From IMG/VR virus record IMGVR_UViG_3300036770_008730: a stretch of DNA of 64,000 nucleotides; one strand, given 5' to 3'. Source of the stretch: a virus. Taxonomy: Duplodnaviria; Caudoviricetes. The notes beneath the pieces were generated by a model. That model searched no databases and was not told the origin of the DNA. It worked only from the letters and a program-made list of their open reading frames with translations. This document shows, in pieces, positions 72-63,419 of this stretch. How positions within the stretch are numbered: position 1 is the stretch's first letter; each line of letters begins with the position of its first letter. Made by a program: the position numbers and the translations under genes.

Positions 72-722
72 CTACTTAATTGGACAGTGATTTGCGCTGT
101 AAATATATTTCCAATTTCTTTTAATATTCACACCTATTTTTTCAGCGGTTGTTATTATATCCTCTAAACATTCAGAATCAGAACCACCAACAATAATAAC
201 TTCTTTTCCTTTCATACTTAGAAGAAGTTTATATAGTTTTATAGGAACATGAAACCACCTATGATTATTTCCTATGTAAACAATTAATGTTCCTTCTTTT
301 GTTTCAAAACATTCTCCCTTTTGAAGTGTTCCGTCTAATTCTTTGCTTTTGATTAGTTTGTAGGTTTTCTCATCCAAAATACCCTTATTACCATCACTAT
401 TTTTCATTTTTGTATTATAGAAGTCAGAATCAACATCATAGTTGTATCTCTTTTCAATTAAATCCTTTTGATTTGGAAAATGATATAAGTCATCGTGTAT
501 TGGTATCTCTGGATTTTCATCATATAAGTATTGTTTGTCTACATCTTTGCCATCAACATGATTATCAAATATTTGATAGACATGTTGAAAAGTCTCACAG
601 TATTTTTTCAATTCATTCAAATACATTTCTGAAAAGTACTTTCTAAAGGATTTCTGAACATCAACTACAATAAGAGTATCTCCTATCTGTTCAAAGTCTT
701 CATATAGTTTAAGGTATCTCAT
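72..722 (-). CDS. Isochorismatase/cysteine-hydrolase (nicotinamidase-like) protein with capsid-targeting-like leader
   Basis: LIVVDVQ (catalytic Asp), DNH metal motif, EKRY Lys, IIVGG..ECL catalytic Cys; N-terminus MRYLKLYEDFE. Confidence 0.6.
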   Translation of the reverse strand: MRYLKLYEDFEQIGDTLIVVDVQKSFRKYFSEMYLNELKKYCETFQHVYQIFDNHVDGKDVDKQYLYDENPEIPIHDDLYHFPNQKDLIEKRYNYDVDSDFYNTKMKNSDGNKGILDEKTYKLIKSKELDGTLQKGECFETKEGTLIVYIGNNHRWFHVPIKLYKLLLSMKGKEVIIVGGSDSECLEDIITTAEKIGVNIKRNWKYIYSANHCPIK

Positions 723-726
723 TAAT

Positions 727-735
727 TATATATTA
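727..735 (-). promoter_or_regulatory. TAATATATA putative late promoter
   Basis: Exact motif 4 nt upstream of the ATG at 722; it recurs upstream of many genes. Confidence 0.55.
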
Positions 736-737
736 AA

Positions 738-763
738 TAAAAAACCCATCATTTCTGATGGGT
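738..763 (-). terminator. Intrinsic terminator (ACCCATCA/TGATGGGT stem plus U tract)
   Basis: 8-bp stem at 744-763 followed on the minus strand by a T run, downstream of 785..1432. Confidence 0.7.
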
Positions 764-784
764 CGATGATAATATATTTTAAGA

Positions 785-1432
785 TTATTCTTCTGGAAGT
801 TTTTCTTCTCCCTCTTCTTGTCCTTCCTCTTTCTCTTCTTGTCCTTCCTCTTTCTCTTCTTGTCCTTCCTCTTTCTCTTCTTGTCCTTCCTCTTTCTCTT
901 CTTGTCCTTCCTCTTTCTCTTCTTGTCCTTGACCTTGTCCCTGTGGTTCTTCAAATTCTTCTTCTTTTTGTCCTTGGCCTTGAGTTTGTCCTTGGCCTTG
1001 AGTTTGTCCTTGACCTTGAGTTTGTCCTTGACCTTGAGTTTGTCCTTGACCTTGAGTTTGTCCTTGAGCTTGTGGTTGAGTTTCCGCTTGAGCTTGTGGT
1101 TGAGTTTCTGTTTGAACTTGAGTTTGACCTTGTCCTTGTGTCTGAGTCTGACCACCCATTATCGCACCTCCTGGAATTTTCTCAACATCTAAGAAATTCA
1201 TATTAATATACTTAACAATTTCTTCAGCGATATCAACATCTCCAAAAAACTGACGAAGATTCTTACCAGTTGTATCTTTAACTTTTTTAACATAAGCATT
1301 AATCAAAGATTGAGGAATATCAATCATAGTTTTAACCTTATATATGTCGTTTACTTGAAGAACTGATTCTTTGATAATCTCTTCTCTGTTCTTCTTAACA
1401 CGATATTTTTCGAATGTTCTAATATGCTTCAT
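785..1432 (-). CDS. Low-complexity Q/G/E-rich protein with capsid-targeting-like leader (possible internal core/scaffold protein)
   Basis: MKHIRTFEKY..IIKES leader; C-terminal TQGQGQ and EEKEEGQ repeats; own TAATATATA at 1459-1467. Confidence 0.6.
   Translation of the reverse strand: MKHIRTFEKYRVKKNREEIIKESVLQVNDIYKVKTMIDIPQSLINAYVKKVKDTTGKNLRQFFGDVDIAEEIVKYINMNFLDVEKIPGGAIMGGQTQTQGQGQTQVQTETQPQAQAETQPQAQGQTQGQGQTQGQGQTQGQGQTQGQGQTQGQGQKEEEFEEPQGQGQGQEEKEEGQEEKEEGQEEKEEGQEEKEEGQEEKEEGQEEGEEKLPEE
812..930. repeat. 21-bp tandem repeat, 5 full copies plus a partial (encodes EEKEEGQ on the minus strand)
   Basis: Unit ctcttcttgtccttcctcttt at 812, 833, 854, 875, 896, partial at 917. Confidence 0.95.
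968..1057. repeat. 18-bp tandem repeat, 5 copies (encodes TQGQGQ on the minus strand)
   Basis: Unit ttgtccttg(g/a)ccttgagt at 968, 986, 1004, 1022, 1040. Confidence 0.95.
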
Positions 1433-2528: not shown

Positions 2529-2813
2529 ATGGCAACAATCACAAAAAAGAAGACACAGTCTAAAGCTGACGAAATACTCTCTAAGCCTTATCGATTGATA
2601 CTTCACAATGATGATTATAATACCTTTGATTGGGTAATCACTTGTCTTATGAAGGTTTGTAACCATGAGTTCGAACAGGCCTCACAATGTGCACATATTG
2701 TCCATTATAAAGGCAAATGTGATGTGAAGTATGGAGACTTAGAAATCATTTCTGAAATGAAGAATAAACTTGCTAGTGCTGGTCTTAGTGTTACTATGGA
2801 AGTAAACAGTTAA
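2529..2813 (+). CDS. clpS: ATP-dependent Clp protease adaptor ClpS
   Basis: LILHNDDYNTFDWV...QASQCAHIVHYKGKCDVK ClpS signature, Bacteroidota-style. Confidence 0.9.
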   Translation: MATITKKKTQSKADEILSKPYRLILHNDDYNTFDWVITCLMKVCNHEFEQASQCAHIVHYKGKCDVKYGDLEIISEMKNKLASAGLSVTMEVNS

Positions 2814-4948
2814 ATGTTTTTACCAAACCAATCAATGTTTCTTGAGTTTGGATTTTTCCTTTGATTCTGTTTTCTCAATCTTAATACTTGTCCATAATCT
2901 AGTGATTCAACATGATCCATCTGATTAAGACAATTATTTACGTAACTTACAAAGTCTTTTGGTAAAAATTTATTAAACCACTCTTCCACCATCTCTTTAT
3001 ATTCATATTTTTGAATAATTGAAGTCATGTTGACTACGGTCATTACGGTGTCATCATGTCCAACATCGGCAGCATATCTTATGTTACCAGAGGATGTTAT
3101 GTGTTTAACAAATGTGGTTATCTCTCTTATGTTCTCTTCATTTGTTATTATAATGCTTTTTGATTGTAGAAGACCTTGATAATCTTTGACTAACAGGTTT
3201 TTATTTTCCCCTACTTTAAGACCCATTTTTTCCTCGGTTGAGTCAATTCTGTGTTTGTATCTAACAAACACAGAGGAACCATAGTTGTTTCTTCCTTCAA
3301 AAACATGTGGTAGTTCAGCAAAAAGAGCATTTCCATAGTTGTTTAACTCGACAACGACTTTTACATTTTCAGGATTTAGATATTCAAATACTATCATATA
3401 AAGTAATTCAGCAAGCTGTTTAACCGAAACCAAATTACTTCTGTAAATGCCTATCTGTTCTAATCTAAAGAAATCAACTATAGAAGTATATGATAATTTT
3501 TGAATTTCTATTAATTCAGTTGGTTTTGGAGAAATCTTAAAAATGTTTATAACAGAGTAATCTTGACCTAATCCCTCGGATATATCGACCGAAATAACTA
3601 CTTTGTAATCTTTTCTCCTAAGAGGTATGAATATCTCATCATCATCAATCCATTTTAATTCGTTATAACTGAACTTAAGTCTTGAATCAAATTCTGGTAT
3701 TTCTTCAAATAAAAAATTCTTTTTACCCTTTAATAATTCATCAATTATTGACTCACTTAATAATGATTTACTTGAATTGATAAATCTTAATCCATATTCT
3801 TGATTAAAGGCATCTTCTCCTCCTATATCTTTAATTGCTTCTTCTTTCCAAGTGGTCGTCTCCGCAATCATTCTTATAGGAACCTCATGTCCTTTTTTGT
3901 CAATGAATGTCATAGATTTAACCTCTTCATCCGAACACATCTCATTATTATAAACATAGATTATATCTTTTTGTATATCAATATTGTATATCATCTCAAC
4001 TTTTGTTTTACCTTCCCATCTTTCTTTCATCAGTTGTAGAATGTCTTCTTTTGTTACTCCATGTTCATATAATTTATGATTATTTAATCTTATGTAAGTT
4101 AGGAATCTACCTGGTACTTGATACCAGTATACCCTCATTGGTTTATAGTTATTTTTTTGAGGATCACCATCAGGCCTTTCAGCATCGGTTAGTAATCTAT
4201 GAAATAAATTCATACCATTTGGGGTTGATGTGATAATAATCTTAGAGTTTTGAACAGCTGATACAGTCGGAAATGCTGCCGTATAGTATGGTTCTATGAT
4301 ATTAGATGGGATGTGTGCAAACTCATCTAAATAAAGAACATCAATGGTAAAACCAATTGCTGGTGTTTTAGTTCTTGCTGATGTTTTTATTCTACATCCA
4401 TTTTCAAATGTTAACGACTTTTGATTCCAGGTTTTTATACCAGGTTTGAGAAAGAAAGGAAGTAGTGAGTAGATTGACTTTATTTTATCTACAATTTCTA
4501 TTGCTGTATCACCCTTATTTGCTACAATCATTATGTTCTTATCATTGTTAAATAAGATGGTATGTAACATGAAAATTGATGATGATATAGTTTTACCAAC
4601 CTGTCTTGACGCCATCAAGATATTAAATCTACTATTCATAAAATTATCAAGTATCTGTTTCTGATACTCTCTTAGTTTGATATTATTAATAGATCCATCT
4701 TCTGTTTTAACTTTACAATACTTCTCTGTGAAATAATGAACATCAAGTGCACATCTAACATATTCTTGTTGTTCATCTGGTGTCATTTTAAATGTAACAC
4801 CTGATCTTCTTAGACCGACTTCACTTTTTAGCCAAGGATTTTGAAATTTCTTTACAACAACACCATCATTTATCTTGTCTGTTGCCTCATCTACTAATTT
4901 AGTAGTGAAAATCATTTGTTTTTCTATGGGTTGTTTACCAAAGGACAT
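2810..4948 (-). CDS. terL: Terminase large subunit (T4 gp17-like)
   Basis: Walker A SRQVGKT, Walker B LYLDEFAH, TSTPNG coupling motif, nuclease motifs VDISEGLGQDYS and GHDDTVM. Confidence 0.95.
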   Translation of the reverse strand: MSFGKQPIEKQMIFTTKLVDEATDKINDGVVVKKFQNPWLKSEVGLRRSGVTFKMTPDEQQEYVRCALDVHYFTEKYCKVKTEDGSINNIKLREYQKQILDNFMNSRFNILMASRQVGKTISSSIFMLHTILFNNDKNIMIVANKGDTAIEIVDKIKSIYSLLPFFLKPGIKTWNQKSLTFENGCRIKTSARTKTPAIGFTIDVLYLDEFAHIPSNIIEPYYTAAFPTVSAVQNSKIIITSTPNGMNLFHRLLTDAERPDGDPQKNNYKPMRVYWYQVPGRFLTYIRLNNHKLYEHGVTKEDILQLMKERWEGKTKVEMIYNIDIQKDIIYVYNNEMCSDEEVKSMTFIDKKGHEVPIRMIAETTTWKEEAIKDIGGEDAFNQEYGLRFINSSKSLLSESIIDELLKGKKNFLFEEIPEFDSRLKFSYNELKWIDDDEIFIPLRRKDYKVVISVDISEGLGQDYSVINIFKISPKPTELIEIQKLSYTSIVDFFRLEQIGIYRSNLVSVKQLAELLYMIVFEYLNPENVKVVVELNNYGNALFAELPHVFEGRNNYGSSVFVRYKHRIDSTEEKMGLKVGENKNLLVKDYQGLLQSKSIIITNEENIREITTFVKHITSSGNIRYAADVGHDDTVMTVVNMTSIIQKYEYKEMVEEWFNKFLPKDFVSYVNNCLNQMDHVESLDYGQVLRLRKQNQRKNPNSRNIDWFGKNI

Positions 4949-8825: not shown

Positions 8826-11800
8826 ATGAAGTATGTAAAGAAGAGAGATAGTTTCCTAACGGGAATAAAAGAATATAAAGAAACCGACAGTTATAAAAAC
8901 TTAGAACTAATACAGGAAGACGGTGGTCCCCTCCATAATGCTGTTGAATTTGGAGATTCTTGGGTGGGTAGATGGATCCATAATATAATGAGAGCTGCTA
9001 AAGAAAAAGTAGACAAAATGAGAATCGCTGGTCAAATCAGAAGGTTAAAAATGGCATTAGATGACATAATTCAGAATGATGAGGCTGTTAAAATGGAGAT
9101 TATAAAAGTAAGTAAAAAGGATCCTGGTCAAGAGACAACAGATCCTCTTAAAGGAGATGACCTACACGATAAGTTTCTAAAACTTCAATTGCATGTTTTT
9201 TTAGATGAATTAAATGCAGCTGTCGAGAAGGGACACAAAGTGAGTATTATAAAATCTCTTACTGATAATGCTATAGAAGAAGTAGAGAAAACTCCTGAGT
9301 TTGAGGGAAAGAAAGAATTATTGGAACAACTTAAAAAATTCAAAGAGTTCTTAAAAGACTTTGATGATGATGAGGGTAAAGAAGATCCTGACTTCAAACA
9401 AGAAAAGGGAGAAGGAGACGATGATGAAGAGGGAGATGAAGAAGATGAAGAAAAAGAAAGTGGAGATAATGAAGCTAAAAAGCTCTTCACTATGATAGAA
9501 TCTTTGAAGTATTTAGCTCTTATAATAGAAACATACAAAAGAGTTAAGATTGAGAGTAAGGCTACTCAAAAGGAAGTTTATACTTACATAACTAAACCTG
9601 GTGATACAGTTGAAAAGATTCAAAAAAGTCAAGAAATTAATAAAAAGAAATTACAAATAGCAGATATTCGTAGCAAAAATGAAAAGACACTAAAAAAATA
9701 TGCTAAAGATAATCAAACTTTGGCTCCTAACTTGAAATTAGTTATGGAAAATGTAGAAGTTCTTTTCGAGGATGAAGACTGTTTTTATATTTTGAATGGT
9801 GAAGATTATATAATTTTAGAAAAAGAAACATTCGGAACTGGTGGAAGCGCTGATAGACAAACTATCAAAACTTCTAATCAGAAAGGTGAGCCATTAAAAC
9901 AAGGAGAAGACCATTTGACTCAAGCTTTTGCTAAACTTAAAAAAGATATCGAAGTTTTAGAATCTGATAAAGAAAAGGGAATAGGTATAACTCCTAAGTT
10001 TATTAATGATATAGTGGCTGTTTATAAAGAGACTGAAAATAGAACTATAATTCGATCATTATATTCTGAAATCAATAGGTATTTAGTAGGTGATAAAAAA
10101 GCTACTATACAGGAAAAAGATCCGCTTTACAAAGAAAGTATTGAAGTAATTAAAAACCTACCTAAAAGAGTAGTTGTTGCTGAGAAAATAGCAAGATTTA
10201 CAAAAAGAGCTATTCAGTTTGATGGTGAGAATCTTTATGGGGGTCTTGGTGATTTAGGTAAAAATCTCAAAGGATACGTTGAGTCTATGAAAAAAATTAT
10301 GACTTATAAAATTGGTGAATCTAAAGAAAAGGGAGAAACTAAGTTTAAAGTTGGTGATTTAGTTACTTGGACTAATAAAGAAGGTAAAACAATCACTAAG
10401 AAAATTGAAAAAATTGAAAATGGTAAATATGTCTTTAAAAAAGAAAGTGGTGAAGAATATACCAAAAAAGAGGACACTTTGAAAAAGGCAGAGCCTAAAA
10501 AAGAAGAGGAACCTAAAAAAGAAGAAGAAGCAAAGAAAGAATCAAGACTATTAAGATATGACAACTATTATAGACTTATAACAGAGGCTGACGATAAAGA
10601 GGGAGTTCTTTCTGAAGTTAGTAGAAAGATTTTAGAGTTTTGGAGAGCAAACGTAGAAGTAAAAGCATATATTTTAAATAAAGAAGAGTTTGAAAAACTA
10701 TTAAAAGAATTAGAAGATGCTGAACTTAATCAAGAGGTAGAGATGCCGGTTTCCGAGGGTGATCCTAAGGCTGACAAATTGCCTGAACCTAAGAAAAAGA
10801 AAGTCAAGTTAGACGGTCTTGCATTTACTATCGATCCAGTTCTTCGTATTGTGAAGGCATTCAACAAAGCTTATAAATTACATACTACAGAAGTTATTCC
10901 TTCTGGTAGAACAAGTGGTGCGGTGTCTAATAGAATCTTTAGACAGTATACCTCTCTCGGTAGTGGTAGTCCAGATAGTGCTGGTAAATCTGGTGGTCCT
11001 TATAGAAATAATGCTGTATTTAATAAGTGGGAAGAAGCTGTATTGGATGTAATGGGTGAGAGTAAATATCAAAAGATTTTTTCACCATCTACCGTTCTAT
11101 TGAGAGGAGAAGATTTAGTGGAAAAGGCTGGTGCTAACTTAAGATTATTCATGTCAGATCTTTTGGATGGCGATAAACTTTATAAAGGAAGTGGTAGTTC
11201 TGGTGAAAAAGGAGCTCAATCTCAATTTTTAGATAAGTATTTTGGTTGGAAAGGAGATGATAAGGTTCTTTATGATGGTGGATCGAATGAGCAAAAAGAA
11301 ACAGGTGCTGTAGCGACAGAAGTTGATAAAAAGACCAATGAACAAATTGTGTCATTTACAAAAGATGATATCAAATTTACACAAGTTTCTGAGTTAGTTG
11401 GTACTATGTTCAAATTAGAAGATGCTGATGGTGATAAGTCTTATTATTTCTATATACACGAGGTATCTGGTGATTATTTCTATGTGACTTATACTAGAGG
11501 TTATAAATTCTATCATGATTTGATTCATAAAGAAGGTAAATATGGATTTCCAGATCTTTCTAAAATAAAAGGTGATGGTAAAACACCTAATGATAGCTAC
11601 AGTTCGGGTGATGGTGAGTGGGTTATTAGAGCAACAAAGATTGCGACTAGAAATTTTGATACTAAGACTGGAAAATTGAAACCAGCGACTTATGAGTCTG
11701 TTTATATTAGAAAGAAGGATAAAAAGCCTTTTACAAATAAGCAGGATGAAGTTGAAAAGTCATCGGAAAAAGACAAATTAACAGCAAAGGCGGGTAAAAT

Positions 11801-11954
11801 ATTTATATTGTCAGTTAAAAAGGATAAAGATGATAAAGAACCTAAGTTTGCTACTATTGAGAAAAAAGATAATCTTAAGGAAAAAGGTATATTCCCCGCT
11901 ATAAAGAACACTAAAGGTATTGGTGATAGCGATGTGATTTTCAAAATTCAATAA
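8826..11954 (+). CDS. Large putative internal virion protein with LysM-like and KOW/SH3-like domains
   Basis: Leader MKYVKKRDSF..LIQE; LysM-like YTYITKPGDTVEKI; KOW-like FKVGDLVTW; ~133-aa domain shared with 61096..62781. Confidence 0.6.
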   Translation: MKYVKKRDSFLTGIKEYKETDSYKNLELIQEDGGPLHNAVEFGDSWVGRWIHNIMRAAKEKVDKMRIAGQIRRLKMALDDIIQNDEAVKMEIIKVSKKDPGQETTDPLKGDDLHDKFLKLQLHVFLDELNAAVEKGHKVSIIKSLTDNAIEEVEKTPEFEGKKELLEQLKKFKEFLKDFDDDEGKEDPDFKQEKGEGDDDEEGDEEDEEKESGDNEAKKLFTMIESLKYLALIIETYKRVKIESKATQKEVYTYITKPGDTVEKIQKSQEINKKKLQIADIRSKNEKTLKKYAKDNQTLAPNLKLVMENVEVLFEDEDCFYILNGEDYIILEKETFGTGGSADRQTIKTSNQKGEPLKQGEDHLTQAFAKLKKDIEVLESDKEKGIGITPKFINDIVAVYKETENRTIIRSLYSEINRYLVGDKKATIQEKDPLYKESIEVIKNLPKRVVVAEKIARFTKRAIQFDGENLYGGLGDLGKNLKGYVESMKKIMTYKIGESKEKGETKFKVGDLVTWTNKEGKTITKKIEKIENGKYVFKKESGEEYTKKEDTLKKAEPKKEEEPKKEEEAKKESRLLRYDNYYRLITEADDKEGVLSEVSRKILEFWRANVEVKAYILNKEEFEKLLKELEDAELNQEVEMPVSEGDPKADKLPEPKKKKVKLDGLAFTIDPVLRIVKAFNKAYKLHTTEVIPSGRTSGAVSNRIFRQYTSLGSGSPDSAGKSGGPYRNNAVFNKWEEAVLDVMGESKYQKIFSPSTVLLRGEDLVEKAGANLRLFMSDLLDGDKLYKGSGSSGEKGAQSQFLDKYFGWKGDDKVLYDGGSNEQKETGAVATEVDKKTNEQIVSFTKDDIKFTQVSELVGTMFKLEDADGDKSYYFYIHEVSGDYFYVTYTRGYKFYHDLIHKEGKYGFPDLSKIKGDGKTPNDSYSSGDGEWVIRATKIATRNFDTKTGKLKPATYESVYIRKKDKKPFTNKQDEVEKSSEKDKLTAKAGKIFILSVKKDKDDKEPKFATIEKKDNLKEKGIFPAIKNTKGIGDSDVIFKIQ

Positions 11955-11955: not shown

Positions 11956-12510
11956 ATGAAACATTTACTAACTTTTGGTCTTTTTTTAGAAAAGGTGGAT
12001 ATTAAAGATACTGATCCAGCTCATATTAGACTTGCTAAAGACAAATTAAATTCAACTGAAGATTATTTGACTCAATACCCTAATTTAAAGGCAAAGATAG
12101 ATAGTATCTATAAAGCTAATAAAGATAAACCTGAGTCAGAGGTTTATAAACAAGTTTTGGATTCTTTGGGTAAAGATGCTAAGTTAAGAAATCCCTTCGC
12201 TGTAACTTATGCTGAAGTAGCAAAATTAGAAATAGAAATTAAAAAAATGACAGATAGTATTTTAGTTGATGATACTGGAATGAAATTATCTTCTCAAAAT
12301 CTTTCATTGGCAACTTCTGAAGATACTAAGAAAAAAATGCAAACAGATTTGATTCAAATGAAGAAAAATCTTGATACAAAAAAGAAAAAACTCGAAGATA
12401 GTTTAAAACAAGTAGATAAGTCAAAGCAGCAAGTAAATACTGAAATCACGAAAACACAGAAAGAAATTGCTGAGGCTTCTAAAAAATTAGCCGAAAAGGA
12501 GAAAAAATAG
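11956..12510 (+). CDS. Coiled-coil protein with capsid-targeting-like leader
   Basis: MKHLLTFGLFLEK leader; K/E-rich C-terminal coil. Confidence 0.65.
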   Translation: MKHLLTFGLFLEKVDIKDTDPAHIRLAKDKLNSTEDYLTQYPNLKAKIDSIYKANKDKPESEVYKQVLDSLGKDAKLRNPFAVTYAEVAKLEIEIKKMTDSILVDDTGMKLSSQNLSLATSEDTKKKMQTDLIQMKKNLDTKKKKLEDSLKQVDKSKQQVNTEITKTQKEIAEASKKLAEKEKK

Positions 12511-12571: not shown

Positions 12572-15500
12572 ATGGCAATTCAAATTGGAAAATACAAAAG
12601 ACCAGGAATCTTCATAGAAGAATTTGACAATTCAGTTATCTCTTCTCCTATTGTAGAAGGAATAACTAACATGGTTATCGGGGTTTCTAAAAAGGGTCCT
12701 GTTAATACTCCTATTAGATTGACTACAACCGGAGATTTAGAAGCGGTTTTTGGTCAACTTGACAGAGGGCTAGAAAGAAAAGGTTCTTATTTCCACAGAA
12801 CTATTACTAAGATGTTGGAAACAAGTCCTATATTTGCTATCAATCTTTTATTAACAGATGATACATTAGATGTGATTGAGTATAAATCTCTTTCATCATC
12901 TTCTGGATATATGAATGATATAAAAAGAGAAGGTCCTTATAGAAGATTTTTTGATACAACTGGTTTCTGGAAGAGAGACACTGAGTCTTTTATCAATTTA
13001 ACAAAAAACAACACTGGTTATACAGAGAGAGCATTCAATATAACAAATTTATCTGATAAGACTATTTCAGTTTTTATTATCAAGTCTCCTATTTCTGGTT
13101 TTGATAGAACGTTAATTGAATGGTATGGAACTATTGATAAAATGCCTCCTTATGTTAATCAAAATGATTTTGCATCTGACTATTTAGTAGATGTGGTTGT
13201 TGTTGGTGGTGACTGGTCAAACTACCAAGAGCTAGCTGTTGATAACAGATGGAGTGCTTACTTCAACGCTTCTGGTTTGAGAAAAGACCAATTAAGAAAT
13301 TTTGCCAATGATAGAAATGTTTCGCTTTTAGCTTATTATGAAGGTCTTTCTTTAATTCCTTATTTCAGAGATGGAAATGGAAGAAATATATTTATTGAGA
13401 CTACAATTAATAGAGATACTGATAGAACTGGATTATTCTGTTCATTTAACACAGATTTAGTTGAAAAAGACTACTATACTGGTATGTTAGATTTACTTGG
13501 TAATACTATTGTTGATCAATCTGAAACTGATATAGATTTTCTTTCTTACAAAGAAACAATCGCTGAGTCAGTTATGTTTGAGGCTGTTCCTCTAGATTTA
13601 CCAGGTAATGTTACTGCTATGTTAAGTAGTGCAACATTTGGATATAATGGTGGTTATTCCTCACCAACAGGTCACGCTTTTGAATCAGCTCTTAGTAATC
13701 CACAAACATCTGGTGTATTAGTAAATGAGAATAATAGAACACCTTGGTTCGCTGAGGGTTATGTTCATAATGTTGAAAGAGCTTCTTCTGTGGCTTCTTC
13801 AACCTCTTCTATAACTGTTACTTATAATGTTTCAGCAGAAGCTTATTGTGTTATAGGTGATACATATATACCTGTTTCAGCGACAACTTCTCTAACAATT
13901 GATTCATTAGACTATCCTGTTTCTGCTTCAACTCAGGTTTATTTCTCAGCATTTGTTTTAGATGCATCTGGAGAAATTAGTGAAGTAAAAACAACAACTG
14001 CAAATACAAGACCAACTGTTGATCCAAGTGATATCGTTTTAGGATATGCTACATTTTCAGTTGCATCTGGTCAATTTGTAGGTAGTCCTTTTGTTAAAAA
14101 TGTTAGTGTTAATACAAGTGGATTTAATGATTTCGTATTTGGAACAAATTCTGCAACTGATGATTTCTTTGTTACAAATTTAGGTAGTGGTTCTATTAAA
14201 ATTGAATTTATTGGAACAAGTGCAAAAGCTTCTACCGCTAATTATGAGCAATATAGAAGAATTAAACAATTCAATAGAATGATTGATCTTATTGATAGTC
14301 CAAATAAAAATAAAATGAGTCTTTTATTAGGTCCTTCTTCTGGATATAGAAAGGTTAGTATGAGTACAATGACTATTTCAAATATCGTTACATCAAATGT
14401 TCTTAATAAATCCTTTACTATTAATACAGGACTTACTACAGCTGAGTTAGTTGATGTTCTACAGGGTTATCTTGTTTTCTATACAGAGGATAATGAAATG
14501 CTAATTGGTTCTTTAGGTATGGATACAACTGAACAAGTTCATGGTGGAACTTATGGTGTTGTTGGTAAGTATTCTAAATTTTATGGAAGATTTTTTGATG
14601 GTATTATTAGCACAAAAGATTTCTTTTATGATAATAGATTATATGTTTATTCAGATGGGGATGCTAATACAATAGCAACTCTTGGTAAATCAGTTAACAT
14701 TACATTTGTTGATGGTGAGACTGTAACAAGTGCTACATCTTCTTACGCTGGTTATGATTACATTGTATTCGAGTATGATTCTAGTAATTTTGATACACAA
14801 ATAGAGTTAGAAACATTTGAACAACTTGTATTTCCGGATTCAGATTTGAATAAAGGTTCTTTTACAATAGTGACAAATACTGTTGAGCCTTTAGATTCTC
14901 CTTCGGCATTAGCTTCTAACTTGGGATTCGTTAATACTGCTACTCAGTTTTATTTCGCTTACCAAGTAAATGAAGAGGTAAACTATGAATATTTAACAGA
15001 AGTAACTACTGTTCAAGATTACTTAACTAAACATTACTTAAAAATGTATTTAGAGAATAATGGTGATTTGAATGTTAGATTTACAGATGTTTTATTAGAA
15101 TCAGATGAACCAGCAGACTTTGTTGCAAATGCTAAGTTTATGGTACAATCTGAAAAGAGTAATCTTAAACAAACAATCGAAGTTGAACTTCCATCTGGAT
15201 ATACTAGAGTTCCTAACAAAGTTTTGATAAATGGTACTCGTTATACTGAAGTAAAAGTAGGTGACTTCTTAGAAGCTTATGTTGATACAACATTACTTCA
15301 ACCAGGAGAAGCTCCTAGAAAACTTACAAGAATTTTAAGTAAGAGACAATATGCGGGTGACCCAACTCTTACAGAAGTTACTTGTGATGCTAGAATTAAC
15401 ACTTATAGTTTTGATGGTGATTTACAAACTACTAGATTTGTATCAGTTGATCAATATGCTACTACTTATAAAGCAATATCACTTAAAGGATTTAGAATTA

Positions 15501-16513
15501 GACAAGCTTCTCTTCCTGATGGAACTGAAGAAAGACAAAATCAAATATTGAATCTTGTCGCTAAAGGAACTCCTTTATTCAAAGCGATTACAAATAAAGA
15601 GGCTATTGACTTCAGATATTTAATTGATTCTTTTGGATTAGGTTTAACTGAAAGATCTAAACAACAATTGGTTGACATTTGTGGTGATAGATTAGACGCA
15701 TTTGGTTTCATCAATATGCCATCAATGAGACAATTCAAAAACTCAAGTGGTCCATCTTTCGTAAATGCTGAGGGTGTATTACAACTTGAATTTGTAGCTA
15801 AAGGTGGTGACCCAGAAAGTAATCCTCCATTCTTATATTCATTCGGTGATGGTGCAGGAAGCACTTGTGTAGGGTACTTTATGCCTTATGTGATTGGTAA
15901 TGATAATGGTAGACCAGTTGAACTTCCACCAGCAATGCATGTGGCGACAACTTATATGAGAAAACATATCTCTAATGTTACATCTATCACACCTTGGACA
16001 ATCGCAGCGGGTGTTACAAATGGTAGAGTTACTAATATTCCAAGTACTGAATTGGATTTCACACTTTCTGATATTGAATATATCAATCAGGCACAGATGA
16101 ATCCTATAGTATTCAAAAGAAATAGAGGATATGTAATCGAGACTGAAAACACAGCTCAAACTCTTTATAGGTCAGCTCTTTCTTACATACATGTTAGAGA
16201 GGTGTTGATTGAACTTGAAAGAGAATTATCAAGAATGTTATTAGATTTCCAATGGAAATTCAATACTCCTGATATCAGAGCTGAAATTAAGTTAAGAGCA
16301 GATGTAATCTGTGAAACTTATGTAAGTAAAAACGGTCTTTACAACTACTTCAACAAAATGGATGAAGAAAACAATACAAATGAGATTATCGATAATCAAA
16401 TCGGTGTTCTTGATACCTATGTGGAACCAATTAAGGGTATGGGTATTATTGTTAATAACATTACCATCCTTAGAACTGGTGCTATCAGTGCGGGTGGATT
16501 CATCAATCCATAA
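12572..16513 (+). CDS. gp18: Contractile tail sheath protein (gp18-like) with large insertions
   Basis: N-terminal RPGIFIEEFD and GVSKKGPVNTP; C-terminal ENTAQT..SALSYIHVREVLI, FQWKFNT and EPIKG sheath motifs; TTTATATATA at 12532. Confidence 0.9.
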   Translation: MAIQIGKYKRPGIFIEEFDNSVISSPIVEGITNMVIGVSKKGPVNTPIRLTTTGDLEAVFGQLDRGLERKGSYFHRTITKMLETSPIFAINLLLTDDTLDVIEYKSLSSSSGYMNDIKREGPYRRFFDTTGFWKRDTESFINLTKNNTGYTERAFNITNLSDKTISVFIIKSPISGFDRTLIEWYGTIDKMPPYVNQNDFASDYLVDVVVVGGDWSNYQELAVDNRWSAYFNASGLRKDQLRNFANDRNVSLLAYYEGLSLIPYFRDGNGRNIFIETTINRDTDRTGLFCSFNTDLVEKDYYTGMLDLLGNTIVDQSETDIDFLSYKETIAESVMFEAVPLDLPGNVTAMLSSATFGYNGGYSSPTGHAFESALSNPQTSGVLVNENNRTPWFAEGYVHNVERASSVASSTSSITVTYNVSAEAYCVIGDTYIPVSATTSLTIDSLDYPVSASTQVYFSAFVLDASGEISEVKTTTANTRPTVDPSDIVLGYATFSVASGQFVGSPFVKNVSVNTSGFNDFVFGTNSATDDFFVTNLGSGSIKIEFIGTSAKASTANYEQYRRIKQFNRMIDLIDSPNKNKMSLLLGPSSGYRKVSMSTMTISNIVTSNVLNKSFTINTGLTTAELVDVLQGYLVFYTEDNEMLIGSLGMDTTEQVHGGTYGVVGKYSKFYGRFFDGIISTKDFFYDNRLYVYSDGDANTIATLGKSVNITFVDGETVTSATSSYAGYDYIVFEYDSSNFDTQIELETFEQLVFPDSDLNKGSFTIVTNTVEPLDSPSALASNLGFVNTATQFYFAYQVNEEVNYEYLTEVTTVQDYLTKHYLKMYLENNGDLNVRFTDVLLESDEPADFVANAKFMVQSEKSNLKQTIEVELPSGYTRVPNKVLINGTRYTEVKVGDFLEAYVDTTLLQPGEAPRKLTRILSKRQYAGDPTLTEVTCDARINTYSFDGDLQTTRFVSVDQYATTYKAISLKGFRIRQASLPDGTEERQNQILNLVAKGTPLFKAITNKEAIDFRYLIDSFGLGLTERSKQQLVDICGDRLDAFGFINMPSMRQFKNSSGPSFVNAEGVLQLEFVAKGGDPESNPPFLYSFGDGAGSTCVGYFMPYVIGNDNGRPVELPPAMHVATTYMRKHISNVTSITPWTIAAGVTNGRVTNIPSTELDFTLSDIEYINQAQMNPIVFKRNRGYVIETENTAQTLYRSALSYIHVREVLIELERELSRMLLDFQWKFNTPDIRAEIKLRADVICETYVSKNGLYNYFNKMDEENNTNEIIDNQIGVLDTYVEPIKGMGIIVNNITILRTGAISAGGFINP

Positions 16514-20748: not shown

Positions 20749-21888
20749 ATGAGTAAAATTTACATGATCGGAGATAGTCACATTGGACTTGGATTTCCAA
20801 ATAGCGTAGATAAATGGTTTAAAGTTCATAAAGAGTATTTTAGTGAATTTTTGATACCTTTATTAAAAAGAGAAGTTAAATCGGGTGATATAATTGTTCA
20901 TTTGGGTGATTTGTTCGACAATAGAAATGTGATTCCTATCAATTTACTTAACTATGGAATGGATATTGTAGAAGAAATATCTAAAATTGCACCATTTCAT
21001 ATTATAGTTGGTAATCATGATCTTTGGTCTAAAAGTGCAAGTGAAGTTAATAGTATTCGTCCATTCAAATGGATTCCAAATGTTTTTGTACATGATACTG
21101 TTACAAAGATAGATTATAATGGTTTGAAACTTTTATTGATGCCTTATGTTGAGAAGAGAGTCGAACAGATTAAATGGATACAAGATAATAGAGATTGTCA
21201 CTATCTTTTTTGCCACTCTGATTTAAATGGTGCTAAAATGCATTTAACATCTGTTGCTCATAAAAATCCTGATAAAATTGATGTCGAGGAGTTTTCAGCA
21301 TTTAAAAAGGTTTACAGTGGTCATATTCACATTGTCTCTGATAACAGTCAGAAAAACTTCAAATTTGTTGGTTCCATTTTTCAAATGGATAGAAATGACA
21401 CCGGAGACCAAAAAGGTATTTTTGTTTTAGATACTGATACCGGTGAAGAAACATTCTTCCCAAATAAGATATCTCCTATTTTTAAGAAATTTAGAGTTGT
21501 TAAAGAAGAAGATGTGGATAGATTAGATGAGATAAAAGATACCAAAGACTATGTTGACTTACAAATTTCTAATAATCTTTTAATTAGTAACAGAAAGCTT
21601 CGTAGAAAACTTGAAGTGATGTTAGAAAAAGGTAACTTTGCCTCTGTTGAATATATTGATGATATTACAAAAGAGTTAGTTGATGGTGAAGAAGTGAATG
21701 AATCTTCAACAGTCGAAGTTGATGAGAATGGAATTGAAATCTCAGTTCAATTAGAATATGAAGACTATATAAAAGAGTATATTCTTAAACAGAAATACGA
21801 CAATGATAAATTTAAATCAGGTGTTATTTCTGAATTTGATGAAGTGATAAAAATTTACACTGACAATTACAAGTCTTCAACAGATTAA
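20749..21888 (+). CDS. gp47: Recombination endonuclease subunit (T4 gp47/SbcD/Mre11 metallophosphoesterase)
   Basis: GDSH, HLGDLFD, GNHD, CHSD and SGHIH motifs. Confidence 0.9.
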   Translation: MSKIYMIGDSHIGLGFPNSVDKWFKVHKEYFSEFLIPLLKREVKSGDIIVHLGDLFDNRNVIPINLLNYGMDIVEEISKIAPFHIIVGNHDLWSKSASEVNSIRPFKWIPNVFVHDTVTKIDYNGLKLLLMPYVEKRVEQIKWIQDNRDCHYLFCHSDLNGAKMHLTSVAHKNPDKIDVEEFSAFKKVYSGHIHIVSDNSQKNFKFVGSIFQMDRNDTGDQKGIFVLDTDTGEETFFPNKISPIFKKFRVVKEEDVDRLDEIKDTKDYVDLQISNNLLISNRKLRRKLEVMLEKGNFASVEYIDDITKELVDGEEVNESSTVEVDENGIEISVQLEYEDYIKEYILKQKYDNDKFKSGVISEFDEVIKIYTDNYKSSTD

Positions 21889-22826
21889 AATTTCAATTCA
21901 CTCACATCTTTTGCTCTACCTGTAGAAGGATCTCTTGAATTAATAATTTTATTCGGATTGATTCCTGGTCTAGTTGTTAGATAAAAACCATTTTCTAATT
22001 CTCCCTTTACACCTAGTAGATTTAGTATTTCTTTAGGACTATTGTGCTTTGAACTAATCAACATTTGCTCAACATTTTCAGCCGTATACATCTTATTATC
22101 TAAATCCGGTTTGTCTGTAGCTTGAAACCATCTGCAATACTGATACATTCCAGAATCCTCATTATTAACATCTATTCGTTCGGATTTATTTTCACTATTT
22201 ACTCTACTATCAATATTTTTCAGATACCAATCTAATGGTGTGAATATTAGATAATCTTCGATATTACCAAACACTTTGAATTCTTTTATTCCTGTATCTA
22301 CATCATCAAATACTATCGTTTTGGCTTTCGAAAAGTAAGCAACCCATGCCATTCCAAATCTTCTACCATCATGGCCATCTTTTTGTTTGCTTTTTGCTTT
22401 TGGATCTGGATCAGTTAAATATCCTATATGTGGTCTTATTTCTTCATATTTCTTTTTTTCCTCATCAGAAGCAATTTCTTGCCATTTTTTGAAATCGTCT
22501 TTGTAGATTTCTATCAACCAAGGATTATCTTTAAAGCTATTAGCAGAAAGTTTGGCTAATTCAGGCAAACCATTTTCTGATATCATCTCCATTAATTTTT
22601 GAAAAATTAAATCGTTGCCTTGAAAATTATCTGTACCTGTTAAGACCTTATCTGCCTCTGGATTTTGATACCAATGGACAATTTTAGTTGGCGCTAAACT
22701 TTTTGAATCGGTTGCTAAATAAGTTTTACCAGAAGCGCTTGGTCCAGATAGCAAAATAAACTTTTTACCTTCAACTCCTTCTTTTAGTAGTTTAATAAAA
22801 CTTTCGTATAACTTTAAGTATTTCAT
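21885..22826 (-). CDS. P-loop NTPase/kinase-like protein with capsid-targeting-like leader
   Basis: MKYLKLYESF..LKEG leader; Walker A GPSASGKT; IVFDD; TAATATATA at 22851-22859. Confidence 0.65.
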   Translation of the reverse strand: MKYLKLYESFIKLLKEGVEGKKFILLSGPSASGKTYLATDSKSLAPTKIVHWYQNPEADKVLTGTDNFQGNDLIFQKLMEMISENGLPELAKLSANSFKDNPWLIEIYKDDFKKWQEIASDEEKKKYEEIRPHIGYLTDPDPKAKSKQKDGHDGRRFGMAWVAYFSKAKTIVFDDVDTGIKEFKVFGNIEDYLIFTPLDWYLKNIDSRVNSENKSERIDVNNEDSGMYQYCRWFQATDKPDLDNKMYTAENVEQMLISSKHNSPKEILNLLGVKGELENGFYLTTRPGINPNKIINSRDPSTGRAKDVSELKF

Positions 22827-22895
22827 AGTTTTGTTTTTTTTTTTCTGTATTATATATTAATTTTTATCCTATAAATTTTTCTAAATATACCAAAC

Positions 22896-23594
22896 CTAAC
22901 TTATTACTTCGATTCCTTCCTGGCCGAAGACGAAGACTTCTCGACCCCTGAAGATGATAGCAGTGTCTTCCGAGATGCCCAATCCTATCTTCCCAGAAGT
23001 AAGACCGACTGCTATCTTCAGGCGAGAGATTCTACCTCTTTCTCTAAAATGAGTGTCTACTACGATGTCTGGCAACATAGATAGACCCTTTTTCATGAGG
23101 GGTATACTTTTGCCACCTGCTATCATCTCTCCGGATAGGGCCATAGCACCAGCAGAAGTACCTACCACAGCCATTCCTTCTGAAAATCGTTGCTTCATTC
23201 TACTCAGGAAGGAAGTTCCCAGGTAACATTCAGTTATTCTCGATTGATCTCCTCCCACGAAGAAAATTGTATCAGCAACATCTAGCTTTTTCAAGTTCTC
23301 TTCGGTGTCAACCTCGGAGGCAGTTGAAGTGTGTAGAAAAGTTGTGATGCATCCCAATCGGTTAAAAATAGGGAGGTATTTTCTTTCAGCATCTTCTTTG
23401 TGGGCAGTGGCTGTAGTCACGACCAAAAGATTAGCAGAACCCAGTCCATTGATAACAAGCTCTAAGCACTTCTCGGATTCAGATCCACCCACTAGAGCAA
23501 ATGTCTGACCATTTCTCAAGTACGGTGCGATCATGTCTTCGTACTTCAGGTTGAAGCTCTCCACCAACCAGTCACCAAAGTTTTTAATAAGCAT
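22896..23594 (-). CDS. cphB: Cyanophycinase-like serine peptidase (family S51)
   Basis: FFVGGDQ, GTSAG (Ser), DTHFRERGR (His), GISEDT (Glu); probable start MLIKNFGDWLVES at 23594 (alternative 23615); GC clearly higher than flanks. Confidence 0.85.
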   Translation of the reverse strand: MLIKNFGDWLVESFNLKYEDMIAPYLRNGQTFALVGGSESEKCLELVINGLGSANLLVVTTATAHKEDAERKYLPIFNRLGCITTFLHTSTASEVDTEENLKKLDVADTIFFVGGDQSRITECYLGTSFLSRMKQRFSEGMAVVGTSAGAMALSGEMIAGGKSIPLMKKGLSMLPDIVVDTHFRERGRISRLKIAVGLTSGKIGLGISEDTAIIFRGREVFVFGQEGIEVIS

Positions 23595-23934: not shown

Positions 23935-23938
23935 ATTT

Positions 23939-24727: not shown

Positions 24728-24741
24728 AACCAATTTATTTT

Positions 24742-39123: not shown

Positions 39124-39585
39124 ATGAAACTAACTAAGATTATTAAACATTATTTGTTGGGTAAATCCGTAAAAGAAATGGAAATGAATAGAATTTTAGA
39201 AAAAATATCAAGCAAAAAGAAGTTAAGTGACAGAGAGAAAAATTTCTTAGAACTTTATCAATCAACTCGTGATGAAGATTTAAAGGATTATGTTTATCTT
39301 TCTAAAAACTCTACTTTTTCTAAAGTAAGTCAATTACTTGAGAATGAAAAGAAGGTTATATGTGATTTGTGTGATAAAAACGGTAAAATTGGTCTACAAA
39401 TTATTTCAATAGAAAATCAATTCGAAACCGAAAAGTGTATTTTAACATTCAAAAACAAAGAAACACATTTCTTACATGATAAGTTTCTTTATAATTTAAT
39501 TTACAATGTTAAAAAAGACGAGTATTCACTTCAAGAGCAAGATGAATATTTCGAAAAAATAACAACCAAAAGTGATGAAGATTAA
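39124..39585 (+). CDS. Hypothetical protein with N-terminal DUF6576-like helix pair
   Basis: EMNRILEKISSKKKLSDREKNFL. Confidence 0.7.
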   Translation: MKLTKIIKHYLLGKSVKEMEMNRILEKISSKKKLSDREKNFLELYQSTRDEDLKDYVYLSKNSTFSKVSQLLENEKKVICDLCDKNGKIGLQIISIENQFETEKCILTFKNKETHFLHDKFLYNLIYNVKKDEYSLQEQDEYFEKITTKSDED

Positions 39586-39898
39586 AAGATTCGGAGAGTT
39601 TAATGAAGCTATTTCTGGAACTGAACTAGTAGGTAATATATCTATGGGTCCTGCTTATGGTGAAACTAGATTGCAGAATAAAACGGTTGGTAAAAGACAT
39701 ACAACTGCTGAATATTCAAAAGATTTGAATAATCCTGATTCTGGTAATACACTTACTAGTGATATTTTCTTTGATGATCAATATTCGGATATCTATAATC
39801 AATATCTTAAGAGTGGTGGTTCACAATCTGAACTTACGGATGATAGAGGTTTAAATATGAAAATTATGATGGATTTTTTACGAACATCCAATAGTTAA
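39572..39898 (+). CDS. Small protein with capsid-targeting-like leader
   Basis: MMKIKRFGEFNEA leader. Confidence 0.7.
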   Translation: MMKIKRFGEFNEAISGTELVGNISMGPAYGETRLQNKTVGKRHTTAEYSKDLNNPDSGNTLTSDIFFDDQYSDIYNQYLKSGGSQSELTDDRGLNMKIMMDFLRTSNS

Positions 39899-56158: not shown

Positions 56159-56184
56159 TTTTTTGAATTAGTGTATAATGATTA

Positions 56185-61024: not shown

Positions 61025-61061
61025 TTCCTTAAAAATATATAAAAAAAAGACTTTAAATACT

Positions 61062-61070
61062 TAATATATA
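61062..61070 (+). promoter_or_regulatory. TAATATATA putative late promoter
   Basis: Exact motif upstream of the ATG at 61096. Confidence 0.55.
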
Positions 61071-61095
61071 TGGTAGGAAAAAATAAATCTATTTT

Positions 61096-62781
61096 ATGCA
61101 AATTAAAAATTTTTCAAATCATTCTAATGAGTATGTTAAGTTGTATGAATCTAAACTATCTCAATGTGAGTTTTTATCAGAACAAAAGATTACTGCGAAT
61201 GACATCATAAATCCTCTTGAAGACCTAATCACTGAAGAGTTCATCAAAAAAATGATTGACAGAATTGGTGACAGTAAGTTTGGTCAAACTGTAAAGAATG
61301 TTGCGTCTACAGTAAAGACTGCAGTAAGTAATTTTTTCAATGGTGTTGTTAATTTCTTTAAAAACTTCTCATTCAAAAAATTGATAGGGGGTATCGTAAA
61401 CAAAATCAAAGAAATAGGATCTAAGGCTTGGCAAAAAGTAAAAGACGCTTTGTCATCTATGAGAGAATTTATTCTTCAAAATAATATGGTCGATCCTGAA
61501 ACAGGAAAGCCAATTTTGAAAAACATATGGTCTGTTCTTTGTACAAAGGCTAAAAGTGTTATCAACATGAAGGACTCTGGTCTTTCTGATGCTGATTTAC
61601 AGAAAGCTGGTGGTCAGATACAATTAAACGAAGCAGCTGATAAATATGATATTGGTGATGATGAGGTGAAGTACTATGGTGTATTTGAAAAAATTTCACA
61701 TGCTTTGGGTATCAAAAATGCGAGATTCAACGGTGTTGTTTCTCAGATTATGAAAAAAGGTACAATTGGTTTAATAATTATTGGTTTGATGAAGGTTGCG
61801 GGTTTAAGTCTTGGAGCCTTAGCAATAGCTAATCCAATAGCTATGGCTGTGATTGGTGGTATGTTATTGATGGCTGGTTTAATAATTTTAGCAATTTGGA
61901 TTTGCAAACCTTATCCTACGGTTGACGATTGTTTAGCTTATTTACATATGTTTTTTGGTAATAATCTTAAAAGCACTGGTATTACTGTTATTTTCAGTCA
62001 GACAAATTATAATATCAATATTGGAATTTCTGGTGGTAAAGAGGAAGATGTTACTACTGAAAAAGATGAAGAACCTATAAAAGATGATGGTGGTGAGGAC
62101 AAAAAAGAGCCTCTTCCTGAAAAATCACTTTACCCATTAATGATTAAAAATCTTAAAGCACTTCAAAGTATGTTAATTTCTTTTGATGGTGTTTCATTAG
62201 AAGGTGATGAACTTGCTAAAGGTAGTCGAGTTAAACAGAAAGAAAAACAAAAGGAAAAAGAAAAGGAAAAGGTAAGAGAAAGTCTAAGAGTTTTATCTTT
62301 TAGTGAATTAATTTTAGAAAAAGAATTTACTAAACAACCAAGAAATGTAAAGATTACAAAAGGTGAAGATTATCTTACCCAAGCTTTCAAAAATATTACT
62401 AAGTCAATTCAGAATATTAAGAATGAAAGTGATAAAGGTATATCTATTACTGATAAGTTTGTTGGTGATATTCTTTCTAAGAAAATGGAAGCTAAAGATG
62501 TTATTAAATCACTTTATGATGATATTTATGAACATTTGTATGGTAAATATGCTTCTACGATGCCTGACTTCGGAGCACTTTATAAAGAAAGTGTAGATGT
62601 TATATCTAAAACGGCTCAAAGAAAAATTGTAGCTGAGAAGATTGCAAGATTAGCTAAGAGAACGATGCAGTTTGAAGGTGAAGGTTTCTATAGTGGTTTA
62701 GGTGAGTTTGGTGCGGATATGGAAGAATTCAACACTACTTTAAAACAAATTATGGATTCTTTGAAAGCAGAAAATAAATAA
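61096..62781 (+). CDS. Putative internal virion/ejection protein with TM hairpin and a domain shared with 8826..11954
   Basis: MQIKNFS..KLYES..LSE leader; hydrophobic GLIIIGL..LAIWI segment; C-terminal GEDYLTQAF..VAEKIAR domain. Confidence 0.6.
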   Translation: MQIKNFSNHSNEYVKLYESKLSQCEFLSEQKITANDIINPLEDLITEEFIKKMIDRIGDSKFGQTVKNVASTVKTAVSNFFNGVVNFFKNFSFKKLIGGIVNKIKEIGSKAWQKVKDALSSMREFILQNNMVDPETGKPILKNIWSVLCTKAKSVINMKDSGLSDADLQKAGGQIQLNEAADKYDIGDDEVKYYGVFEKISHALGIKNARFNGVVSQIMKKGTIGLIIIGLMKVAGLSLGALAIANPIAMAVIGGMLLMAGLIILAIWICKPYPTVDDCLAYLHMFFGNNLKSTGITVIFSQTNYNINIGISGGKEEDVTTEKDEEPIKDDGGEDKKEPLPEKSLYPLMIKNLKALQSMLISFDGVSLEGDELAKGSRVKQKEKQKEKEKEKVRESLRVLSFSELILEKEFTKQPRNVKITKGEDYLTQAFKNITKSIQNIKNESDKGISITDKFVGDILSKKMEAKDVIKSLYDDIYEHLYGKYASTMPDFGALYKESVDVISKTAQRKIVAEKIARLAKRTMQFEGEGFYSGLGEFGADMEEFNTTLKQIMDSLKAENK

Positions 62782-62798
62782 AAAATTAAACTATTCAT

Positions 62799-63419
62799 AT
62801 GAATAACAAAATCAGAAAATTTGACCAATATAATGAAGGACTAGCTGATAGAATCAGAGCAGCTGGAGCAAAAACCAGAAGAATAGTTACTGGTGAGTCT
62901 GCTGGTGAAGAAATTCAGAAATTGAGCCAAGAACAACAAGAAAAAATTGAAAAATTATACTGGGAAAATCCCACCGAGGCTGCGAAATACCTTAGAAGTA
63001 TTATCGTAAAAGAAAAGAACTCTCAATTTGGATTGGGATTAGCTCTTACAATTGCGGGTGCTGGTATGGTCTATAAGGCTTCTAACTTCGAGCCACCAGA
63101 TCCAGATATTCCACCAGAACCTCCGACACCAAATGTTGAAGATTATGTAGTTCAAAAAGGTGACTCTTGGTGGAGAATCGCTCAGGAACATCTACCAGCA
63201 GGTTCTTCAAATAAAGAAATATTAGCATATGCTAAACAATTGGCAGCTGACAATGGTGCTGAAAATCTATATAGTGGTAAGTTTGGTAGCCCTGGTCTTA
63301 AACCTGATACTTGGACAAACATGTCTTCTGGTGATTCAGTTCCAAAATCAGTTATTTCAGCAGCTGATAAATTGACTACAGGTGAAGAAATTATGATAAC
63401 ACCATTCAAAGGAGTATAA
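62799..63419 (+). CDS. LysM-domain protein with leader, TM segment and Pro-rich linker
   Basis: MNNKIRKFDQYNEG; FGLGLALTIAGAGMVY; PPDPDIPPEPPTP; YVVQKGDSWWRIA. Confidence 0.8.
   Translation: MNNKIRKFDQYNEGLADRIRAAGAKTRRIVTGESAGEEIQKLSQEQQEKIEKLYWENPTEAAKYLRSIIVKEKNSQFGLGLALTIAGAGMVYKASNFEPPDPDIPPEPPTPNVEDYVVQKGDSWWRIAQEHLPAGSSNKEILAYAKQLAADNGAENLYSGKFGSPGLKPDTWTNMSSGDSVPKSVISAADKLTTGEEIMITPFKGV

Follow-up and report, generated by a model that had tools for sequence, protein, structure and literature searches.

Introduction

Mullaney and Black reportedly described, in 1996, the capsid targeting sequence (CTS) of the bacteriophage T4 internal proteins IPI, IPII and IPIII. Inside the T4 prohead the core is also processed, the gp22 scaffold being cut into short peptides at I/L-x-E sites. 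Here we analyze a stretch of 64,000 nucleotides (the window, by which we mean the whole stretch) from a tailed virus of the Caudoviricetes (IMG/VR record IMGVR_UViG_3300036770_008730), in which otherwise dissimilar proteins begin with a short leader that resembles the T4 CTS. The T4 internal proteins are diverse and have only the CTS in common, through which they come to be encapsidated in the scaffolding core (PMC3012670). With the sequence MKTYQEFIAE (10.1101/2021.01.19.427310), the CTS is a propeptide of 10-20 residues that is removed by gp21 (PMC5694885), a protease with catalytic H85 and S140 that cuts after Glu in I/LxE motifs (PMC12991175). Foreign proteins have been packaged in T4 by the same type of sequence, which suffices for the purpose (PMC3012670, PMC5694885).

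Propeptides are also removed by the prohead protease from the ejection proteins of SPN3US, phiKZ and 201phi2-1 (PMC5694885, PMC7411985, PMC10052503). Like the phage considered here these are large phages, and their many head-internal proteins have N-terminal propeptides that are credited with targeting and are cut after Glu. However, those propeptides are mostly longer than 100 residues, have no common short motif and are cut at A/S-x-E, and about 8-19 processed proteins are counted in these phages versus about 100 candidates here. A more distant parallel is provided by the cargo-loading peptides of encapsulins, where a short portable peptide sends unrelated enzymes into an HK97-fold shell. 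Encapsulin peptides are usually C-terminal, are not removed and bind the shell protein directly, and we know of no sequence likeness between them and the huge-phage leader. Our full-text literature searches brought up the T4 CTS and the long phiKZ-like propeptides, and no report of CTS expansion in huge phages.

We propose that the leader serves as a tag for capsid targeting and processing of the T4 type, carried by about a hundred proteins and docking on a repeat scaffold that it resembles; judging from the sequences, we give this reading a probability of roughly 60%. The window belongs to the genome of an uncultured "huge phage" of about 0.6 Mb, from a phage group whose genes recur in many JGI, ENA and Logan assemblies of freshwater type. 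It has about 30% G+C, and its gene starts are A-rich and without Shine-Dalgarno sequences. By tblastn, the best database relatives of its tail sheath are the uncultured huge phages LR745206.1, LR756502, LR756504, LR756501 and LR756500, with Tenacibaculum jumbo phages and Lak phages further off. LR745206.1 is complete at 634,780 bp (LR756501 has 735 kb) and contains collinear orthologues of most window genes; genome-wide analyses were run on it as a stand-in, together with three relatives from IMG/VR.

Results

A short N-terminal motif is strongly enriched in the window. The original prediction had listed 12 N-termini as sharing a T4-like leader, and all 12 were found at their coordinates (Table 1). 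Within five residues of Met1 the pattern [ILV][KRL]x[FY]xx[FYW] matches 9 of the 63 window proteins, where internal positions predict 0.2, and it matches at none of the 398 internal Met positions of the window. A position-specific scoring matrix (PSSM) of 10 columns, iterated and trained on LR745206.1 alone, reads [LI]-K-[KT]-[YF]-[NEK]-E-F-[EIL]-[ES]-E, usually from residue 4. It passes the window genes starting at 72, 785, 11956, 21885, 23939, 24742, 25704, 39575 and 62799, against 0.27 predicted from internal segments and 0.5 +/- 0.6 obtained with shuffled N-termini. Nine of the 12 proposed members are thereby confirmed. A tenth, the S51 peptidase with the leader MLIKNFGDWLVE, scores below the threshold and is counted as a conserved variant because its nearest orthologues start exactly at the Met of 23594 with M[PT]IKNFxDWLxE. 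The proteins encoded from 8826 and 61096 are doubtful members, and the LR745206.1 orthologue of the former is likewise not leader-like. These two are paralogues (43% identity over 136 residues, E=1e-30), so the claim that the carriers are unrelated fails for this pair; for all other pairs it stands, as only the leader is shared and nothing is left once it is trimmed.

The scale in the stand-in genome goes well beyond the dozen first proposed. In LR745206.1, 125 of 921 open reading frames (ORFs), or about 13% of the proteome, carry the leader by PSSM, where about 2 are expected from internal segments. Shuffling residues 2-16 within each protein leaves 7.4 +/- 2.3 matches versus 127 observed. 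As both controls fall far below the observed number, the K/F/E-rich composition of the N-termini does not explain the motif, an outcome that the original prediction had named as one that would refute it. The consensus is M-K-[YH]-[LI]-K-x-[YF]-x-x-F-x-E or, in a fuller form, M-K-[YH]-[LI]-K-x-[YF]-x-x-F-[ILE]-x-E, an N-terminal segment of 10-13 residues that is disordered or helix-prone. Conservation ends at about residue 13, with the information content at background beyond, and the 125 carriers fall into 115 sequence families. Paralogy was rejected as the source of the shared N-termini given the lack of similarity past residue ~13, and explanations from composition and codons were rejected by the shuffling and codon-use tests. 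Leaders also occur near the sheath gene of other huge phages (7 of 49 ORFs in LR756501, 6 of 37 in LR756500 and 3 of 49 in LR756504), with none in a 44-kb stretch around the tail sheath gene of Lak-A1.

The leader is conserved as a peptide. Synonymous codon use at its conserved positions in LR745206.1 equals the genome average, and the orthologues of the 11956-12510 protein (n=21, IMG/VR contigs) keep M-x-x-[LI]-K-x-[YF]-x-[LI]-F-x-E with many synonymous codons and with K/R and Y/F swaps. Given both observations, it is the peptide that is conserved rather than the DNA or RNA. The leader is kept in all four cases where a window carrier has an orthologue in LR745206.1. For example, the 11956-12510 protein and its orthologue are only 28% identical and both have the leader, the orthologue of the 785-1432 protein retains it, and that of the 39575-39898 protein begins MIKKFYQFINE. 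For the 72-722 protein, M-[RK]-[YF]-[IL]-K-x-[FY]-E-x-[YF] is retained in more than 110 metagenomic orthologues. In an AlphaFold2 model of this protein (predicted template modeling score 0.82), residues 1-13 fall below 50 in the predicted local distance difference test, and the folded domain begins with residue 16. Bacterial cyanophycinases begin at their first strand (M-x-KGILIPIGG) and have no leader, whereas in the phage members the leader stands immediately before strand 1. Judged by sequence comparison and by the model, the leader is an add-on to its carriers, because it is disordered in the model, missing from the bacterial cyanophycinases and present on 115 families. The suggestion of a portable tag therefore holds, both for its spread over unrelated families and for its placement before a bacterial-type cyanophycinase core. 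The S51 peptidase family as a whole has more than 300 metagenomic members, and the leader is found on many of those from phages.

The likeness to the T4 CTS, which had been asserted from inspection, is real and specific. When columns 2-10 of the PSSM were scored on all 279 T4 ORFs, gp61.1, ipII, ipIII and ipI took the first four places with 15-18, ahead of an ORF at 8.4 and a median of -5. As a matrix built on huge-phage proteins only retrieves the three T4 internal proteins in this independent test, the tags of the huge phage and T4 are the same kind of sequence. Both are N-terminal, 10-13 residues long, of the form K-x-[YF]-x-E-F-I-x-E with a hydrophobic-x-Glu end, a presumptive cleavage site in the huge phage, and carried by unrelated proteins from clustered, variable loci of phages with gp20/gp21/gp23-type head genes. 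About half of the LR745206.1 leaders have their first Glu after the second aromatic at residue 11-12, and 62 of 85 have I, F or L at P3. The differences are also clear. While T4 has a handful of carriers, the huge phage has about 125; its commonest leader form is longer by one or two residues (M-K-Y-L-K...); F or Y is frequent at P3 of its leaders; and its carriers are mostly acidic and include many recognizable enzymes.

The highest score in T4 belongs to gene 61.1 (NC_000866 18966-19130), which encodes a hypothetical protein of 54 residues that begins MKTFKEFIKE and outscores all three internal proteins. On sequence grounds it is possible that gp61.1 is an unrecognized CTS protein of T4.

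Head machinery of the T4 type, including a gp21-like protease, is present in the lineage. The head genes of LR745206.1 have a T4-like order, with Portal_T4 (PF07230 E=3e-57), a protease ORF and Gp23 (PF07068 E=2e-26). The protease ORF (198546-200669, 707 residues) matches the head maturation protease family phrog_207 (E=4e-30). Against Pfam S77 (PF03420) it scores 16.8-20.1 bits, under the 27-bit cut-off, and by hhalign its protease domain matches T4 gp21 with E=1.3e-4 and a probability of 54%; a PDB sequence search with the domain gave no match. Its His and Ser align with H85 and S140 of gp21 (GEFDHP/GELNHP and VSSR/VSSR). Behind the protease domain are 9-11 tandem repeats of 14 residues, NIxYSEY[LI]AENLDK, followed by an acidic tract. 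There is an [LI]-A-E site in every repeat unit, and the units are similar to the second half of both the leader and the T4 CTS (Y-x-E-[FY]-[LI]-x-E). The heptad [YF]x[EQ][FY][LI]xE occurs 26 times in the LR745206.1 proteome (195,655 residues), that is at 12 N-termini, in 9 repeats and 5 times elsewhere. The architecture is kept in three further IMG/VR relatives.

The protein shares with the T4 gp21/gp22 core the aligned His and Ser and a coiled-coil-like scaffold region full of [LI]-A-E sites. In contrast to T4, protease and scaffold are here one protein of 705-720 residues, with an array of about ten 14-residue units and an acidic tract. Its sequence suggests a scaffold that shreds itself, in which the number of repeats might be related to head size. 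A BLAST comparison of the LR745206.1 capsid protein with T4 gp23 did not align the maturation-cleavage region, and I-N-E at residue 44 is a guess. Between the portal and protease genes, LR745206.1 has a full-length RNase II/R-type exoribonuclease (195382-197286; RNB E=5e-112, CSD, S1).

Only about 12 of 124 carriers in LR745206.1 have Pfam matches. These include a SMODS-associated NUDIX and a NUDIX domain, a PolyA_pol-type nucleotidyltransferase, an Rnl1-type RNA ligase, a 2H/Acb1-like phosphoesterase, NFACT-R, RNase T, GH108, a methyltransferase and wHTH. None of the carriers is a core structural or replication protein. Membrane-like segments are found in 2% of leader proteins versus 9% of others. 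An isoelectric point (pI) below 6 is found for 81% of leader proteins versus 55% of others, and the 15 residues behind the leader are rich in Asp and Glu. The leader genes cluster, with 42 adjacent pairs versus 16.7 +/- 3.5 expected, as do the internal-protein genes of T-even phages. The window array at 21885-27062 has no homologues in LR745206.1, which has different leader genes at the syntenic site.

Gene starts in LR745206.1 fall into three upstream motif classes. The motif TTAATATATA (192 genes) ends 5-9 or 20-29 nt before the ATG, a spacing that may indicate near-leaderless transcripts, and TATAAAAA(T) ends 10-19 nt before the ATG; window examples are found at the starts at 722, 27062, 39124 and 42570. 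TTAATATATA is upstream of 45% of leader genes versus 17% of others (p=6e-11) and also precedes the portal, protease and large terminase (TerL) genes and very large structural-looking genes. Within the window alone its link with leader genes is not significant (4 of 10 versus 14 of 53). Host-type TAnnTTTG promoters, the third class, which precede nucleotide-metabolism genes and the genes for ligase, dCMP deaminase and RNase H, are found upstream of 10% of leader genes versus 16% of others (p=0.14).

The bodies behind the window leaders are a mixed set, and the functions first assigned to them fared unevenly. The S51 peptidase and LysM domains were upheld by Pfam (Table 1), and the AAA+-type ATPase has a Walker A motif (GQAGVGKT), a match to phrog_1250 (E=6e-35) and weak AAA and clamp-loader matches. 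For the proposed P-loop kinase (21885-22826) and HExxH peptidase (23939-24727) nothing was found beyond the Walker A and HEVQH motifs, the latter protein having no Pfam or PHROG family. The proposed cysteine hydrolase (72-722) finds weak fold support: nicotinamidases are the best Foldseek matches of the model (E ~0.05), and its Asp, Lys and Cys positions vary hardly or not at all, Asp21 and Cys185 being invariant. Going by the model, this protein could be a nicotinamide adenine dinucleotide (NAD)-salvage or counter-defense enzyme. PDB sequence searches with the 72-722 and 21885-22826 proteins returned nothing useful.

Table 1. Leader-bearing, doubtful and reference genes of the window
Coordinates	Strand	Length (aa)	N-terminus	Leader	Feature and matches
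72..722	-	216	MRYLKLYEDFE	PSSM 11.8	Nicotinamidase/isochorismatase-like body (weak fold match)
785..1432	-	215	MKHIRTFEKY	PSSM 9.4	Second I-K-E site at residues 20-22
11956..12510	+	184	MKHLLTFGLFLE	PSSM 8.8	Directly upstream of tail sheath gene
21885..22826	-	313	MKYLKLYESF	PSSM 16.2	Walker A GPSASGKT at residue 28
22896..23594	-	232 (from Met at 23594)	MLIKNFGDWLVE	Variant	Cyanophycinase-like S51 peptidase; Pfam Peptidase_S51 E=2.5e-17
23939..24727	-	262	MKYLKTYSLFE	PSSM 15.2	HEVQH at residue 146
24742..25701	-	319	MKHLRKFNE	PSSM 13.2	C-terminus phrog_7595 E=1e-11
25704..27062	-	452	MKILKKYELFLE	PSSM 19.3	AAA+-type ATPase
39575..39898	+	107	MKIKRFGEFNE	PSSM 11.3	
62799..63419	+	206	MNNKIRKFDQYNE	PSSM 8.2	LysM domain; Pfam LysM E=1.6e-5
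8826..11954	+	1042	MKYVKKRDSF	Doubtful; fails PSSM	Paralogue of 61096 gene
61096..62781	+	561	MQIKNFSNHS	Doubtful; PSSM 3.1, sub-threshold	Paralogue of 8826 gene
2810..4948	-			None	Large terminase, T4-type; Pfam Terminase_6N E=8.8e-21
12572..16513	+	1313		None	Tail sheath; tblastn 72% amino-acid identity to LR745206.1; annotated tail sheaths in Tenacibaculum phages

Elsewhere in the window, four genes at 44777-49963 and three at 53586-56691 have no LR745206.1 homologue and are flanked by collinear genes; these blocks look like lineage-specific insertions. At 7743-8174 and 8178-8669, both on the minus strand, are tandem paralogues with N-termini NI(E/N)KVICINLKSHNE, where LR745206.1 has a single copy.

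Discussion

If the leader is a T4-type tag, it would dock the protein that bears it onto the scaffolding core while the prohead assembles, and a gp21-type prohead protease would then cleave the leader after Glu. The mature carrier would stay in the head and enter the cell with the DNA. As the second half of the leader is like one scaffold unit, we infer that it would co-assemble with the scaffold repeats and share their hydrophobic-x-Glu cleavage site. All steps of this scheme, from docking and cleavage to retention in the head and injection, are inferred on the model of T4.

A number of observations weigh against such a role. A tag on about 13% of all proteins is a scale far beyond any characterized phage, our literature search found no proteome data for this lineage, and no cultured relative carries the leader, the first 50 kb of Tenacibaculum phage PTm1 having it on 0 of 53 ORFs. 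The protease-scaffold gene, which lies outside the window, was examined in four relatives, while for the genome of the window itself TerL and the sheath were seen directly. The carriers are acidic, with a median pI of 4.8 versus 5.75 for others (p=2e-14), in contrast to the T4 internal proteins, which are basic. Among the carriers there are also RNA-repair or nucleotide enzymes, such as the Rnl1-type ligase and the PolyA_pol-type nucleotidyltransferase, the T4 counterparts of which are cytoplasmic and, to our knowledge, not virion proteins. In the window leaders, P3 of the presumed site is L or I in about half and F or Y in about half. We know of no evidence that T4 gp61.1 is packaged despite its motif, so the motif alone may be insufficient. 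Lastly, the TTAATATATA class also holds UvsX, SbcC, PhoH and methyltransferase genes, and since it mixes structural with recombination genes, an argument from it for late timing is weak. The load itself is physically plausible: by a rough estimate, 125 different proteins of some 23 kDa, each in ten copies, would come to about 29 MDa, while the ejection proteins in SPN3US, a 240-kb phage, exceed 40 MDa (PMC7411985).

The leader might instead serve the prohead protease or scaffold as a site of recognition and cleavage with no delivery purpose, allowing for example the late proteolytic activation or inactivation of cytoplasmic enzymes, or marking a transient stay in the prohead core that ends before DNA packaging. 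The heptad common to leader and scaffold repeats and the conserved position of the Glu would fit this, as would the acidity of the carriers, which would disfavor co-residence with DNA, and the fact that many of them are enzymes sensible in the cytoplasm; T4 gp21 can act on non-virion substrates (PMC12991175). However, a sequence of this type is enough to bring foreign proteins into the T4 head (PMC3012670, PMC5694885), and as the leader is short and predicted by the AlphaFold2 model not to occlude the enzyme body, its removal need not alter activity. We consider a site without delivery unlikely. A role as a sorting or docking tag for a structure other than the head, such as a phage-made compartment, a membrane patch bound by a short amphipathic helix, or a chaperone or other partner, seems to us somewhat less likely again. 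Very many carriers would be easier to fit in a cytoplasmic structure, and the spacing of hydrophobic residues at i, i+3 and i+6, with Lys ahead and Glu behind, would suit an amphipathic helix. Yet some 10 residues make a short helix for a membrane anchor, membrane-like segments are depleted in leader proteins, the same matrix retrieves the T4 internal proteins, and outside the leaders the motif is found mainly in the protease-scaffold protein.

The motif could also be a by-product of constraint on nucleic acid, either from A/T-rich unstructured 5' ends that serve initiation without a Shine-Dalgarno sequence or from a conserved DNA cassette of promoter and start region that mediates the shuffling of genes. 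The low G+C content and A-rich starts, the A/T-rich codons of K, Y, F, I, L and N, and the TTAATATATA motif common to 45% of leader genes are all in line with it. However, the signal is abolished by shuffling residues 2-16, codon use at the conserved positions is average, orthologues vary their codons and keep residue classes, with L/I, K/R and Y/F exchanges that preserve chemistry, and the AT-rich stretches of PTm1 and Lak-A1 have no matches. This explanation is largely refuted, and we regard it as very improbable.

Among these readings we favor a T4-type targeting and processing tag, in which case the head of the phage probably takes up a cargo of proteins unusual in its size and variety. 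More tentatively, and at less than even odds, a lineage of 0.45-0.75-Mb phages may load about a hundred proteins, some 13% of its coding repertoire, into the head by a T4-derived tag that mimics one unit of the protease-fused repeat scaffold. With the same reserve, Acb1-like and NUDIX enzymes, RNA-repair enzymes, peptidases and ATPases may be counted as candidate cargo. Mimicry of a scaffold repeat by the tag would suggest a docking principle, and the tag might serve as a tool for bringing foreign proteins into the heads of phages. If it works as in T4, the cargo of uncultured giant phages would be predictable from their genomes: an injected "first-strike" proteome could be read directly and would evolve by cassette exchange behind a constant tag. 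This would show how far T4 head loading scales and would expose a large, fast-evolving set of candidate host-takeover and anti-defense proteins, most of them without a known family.

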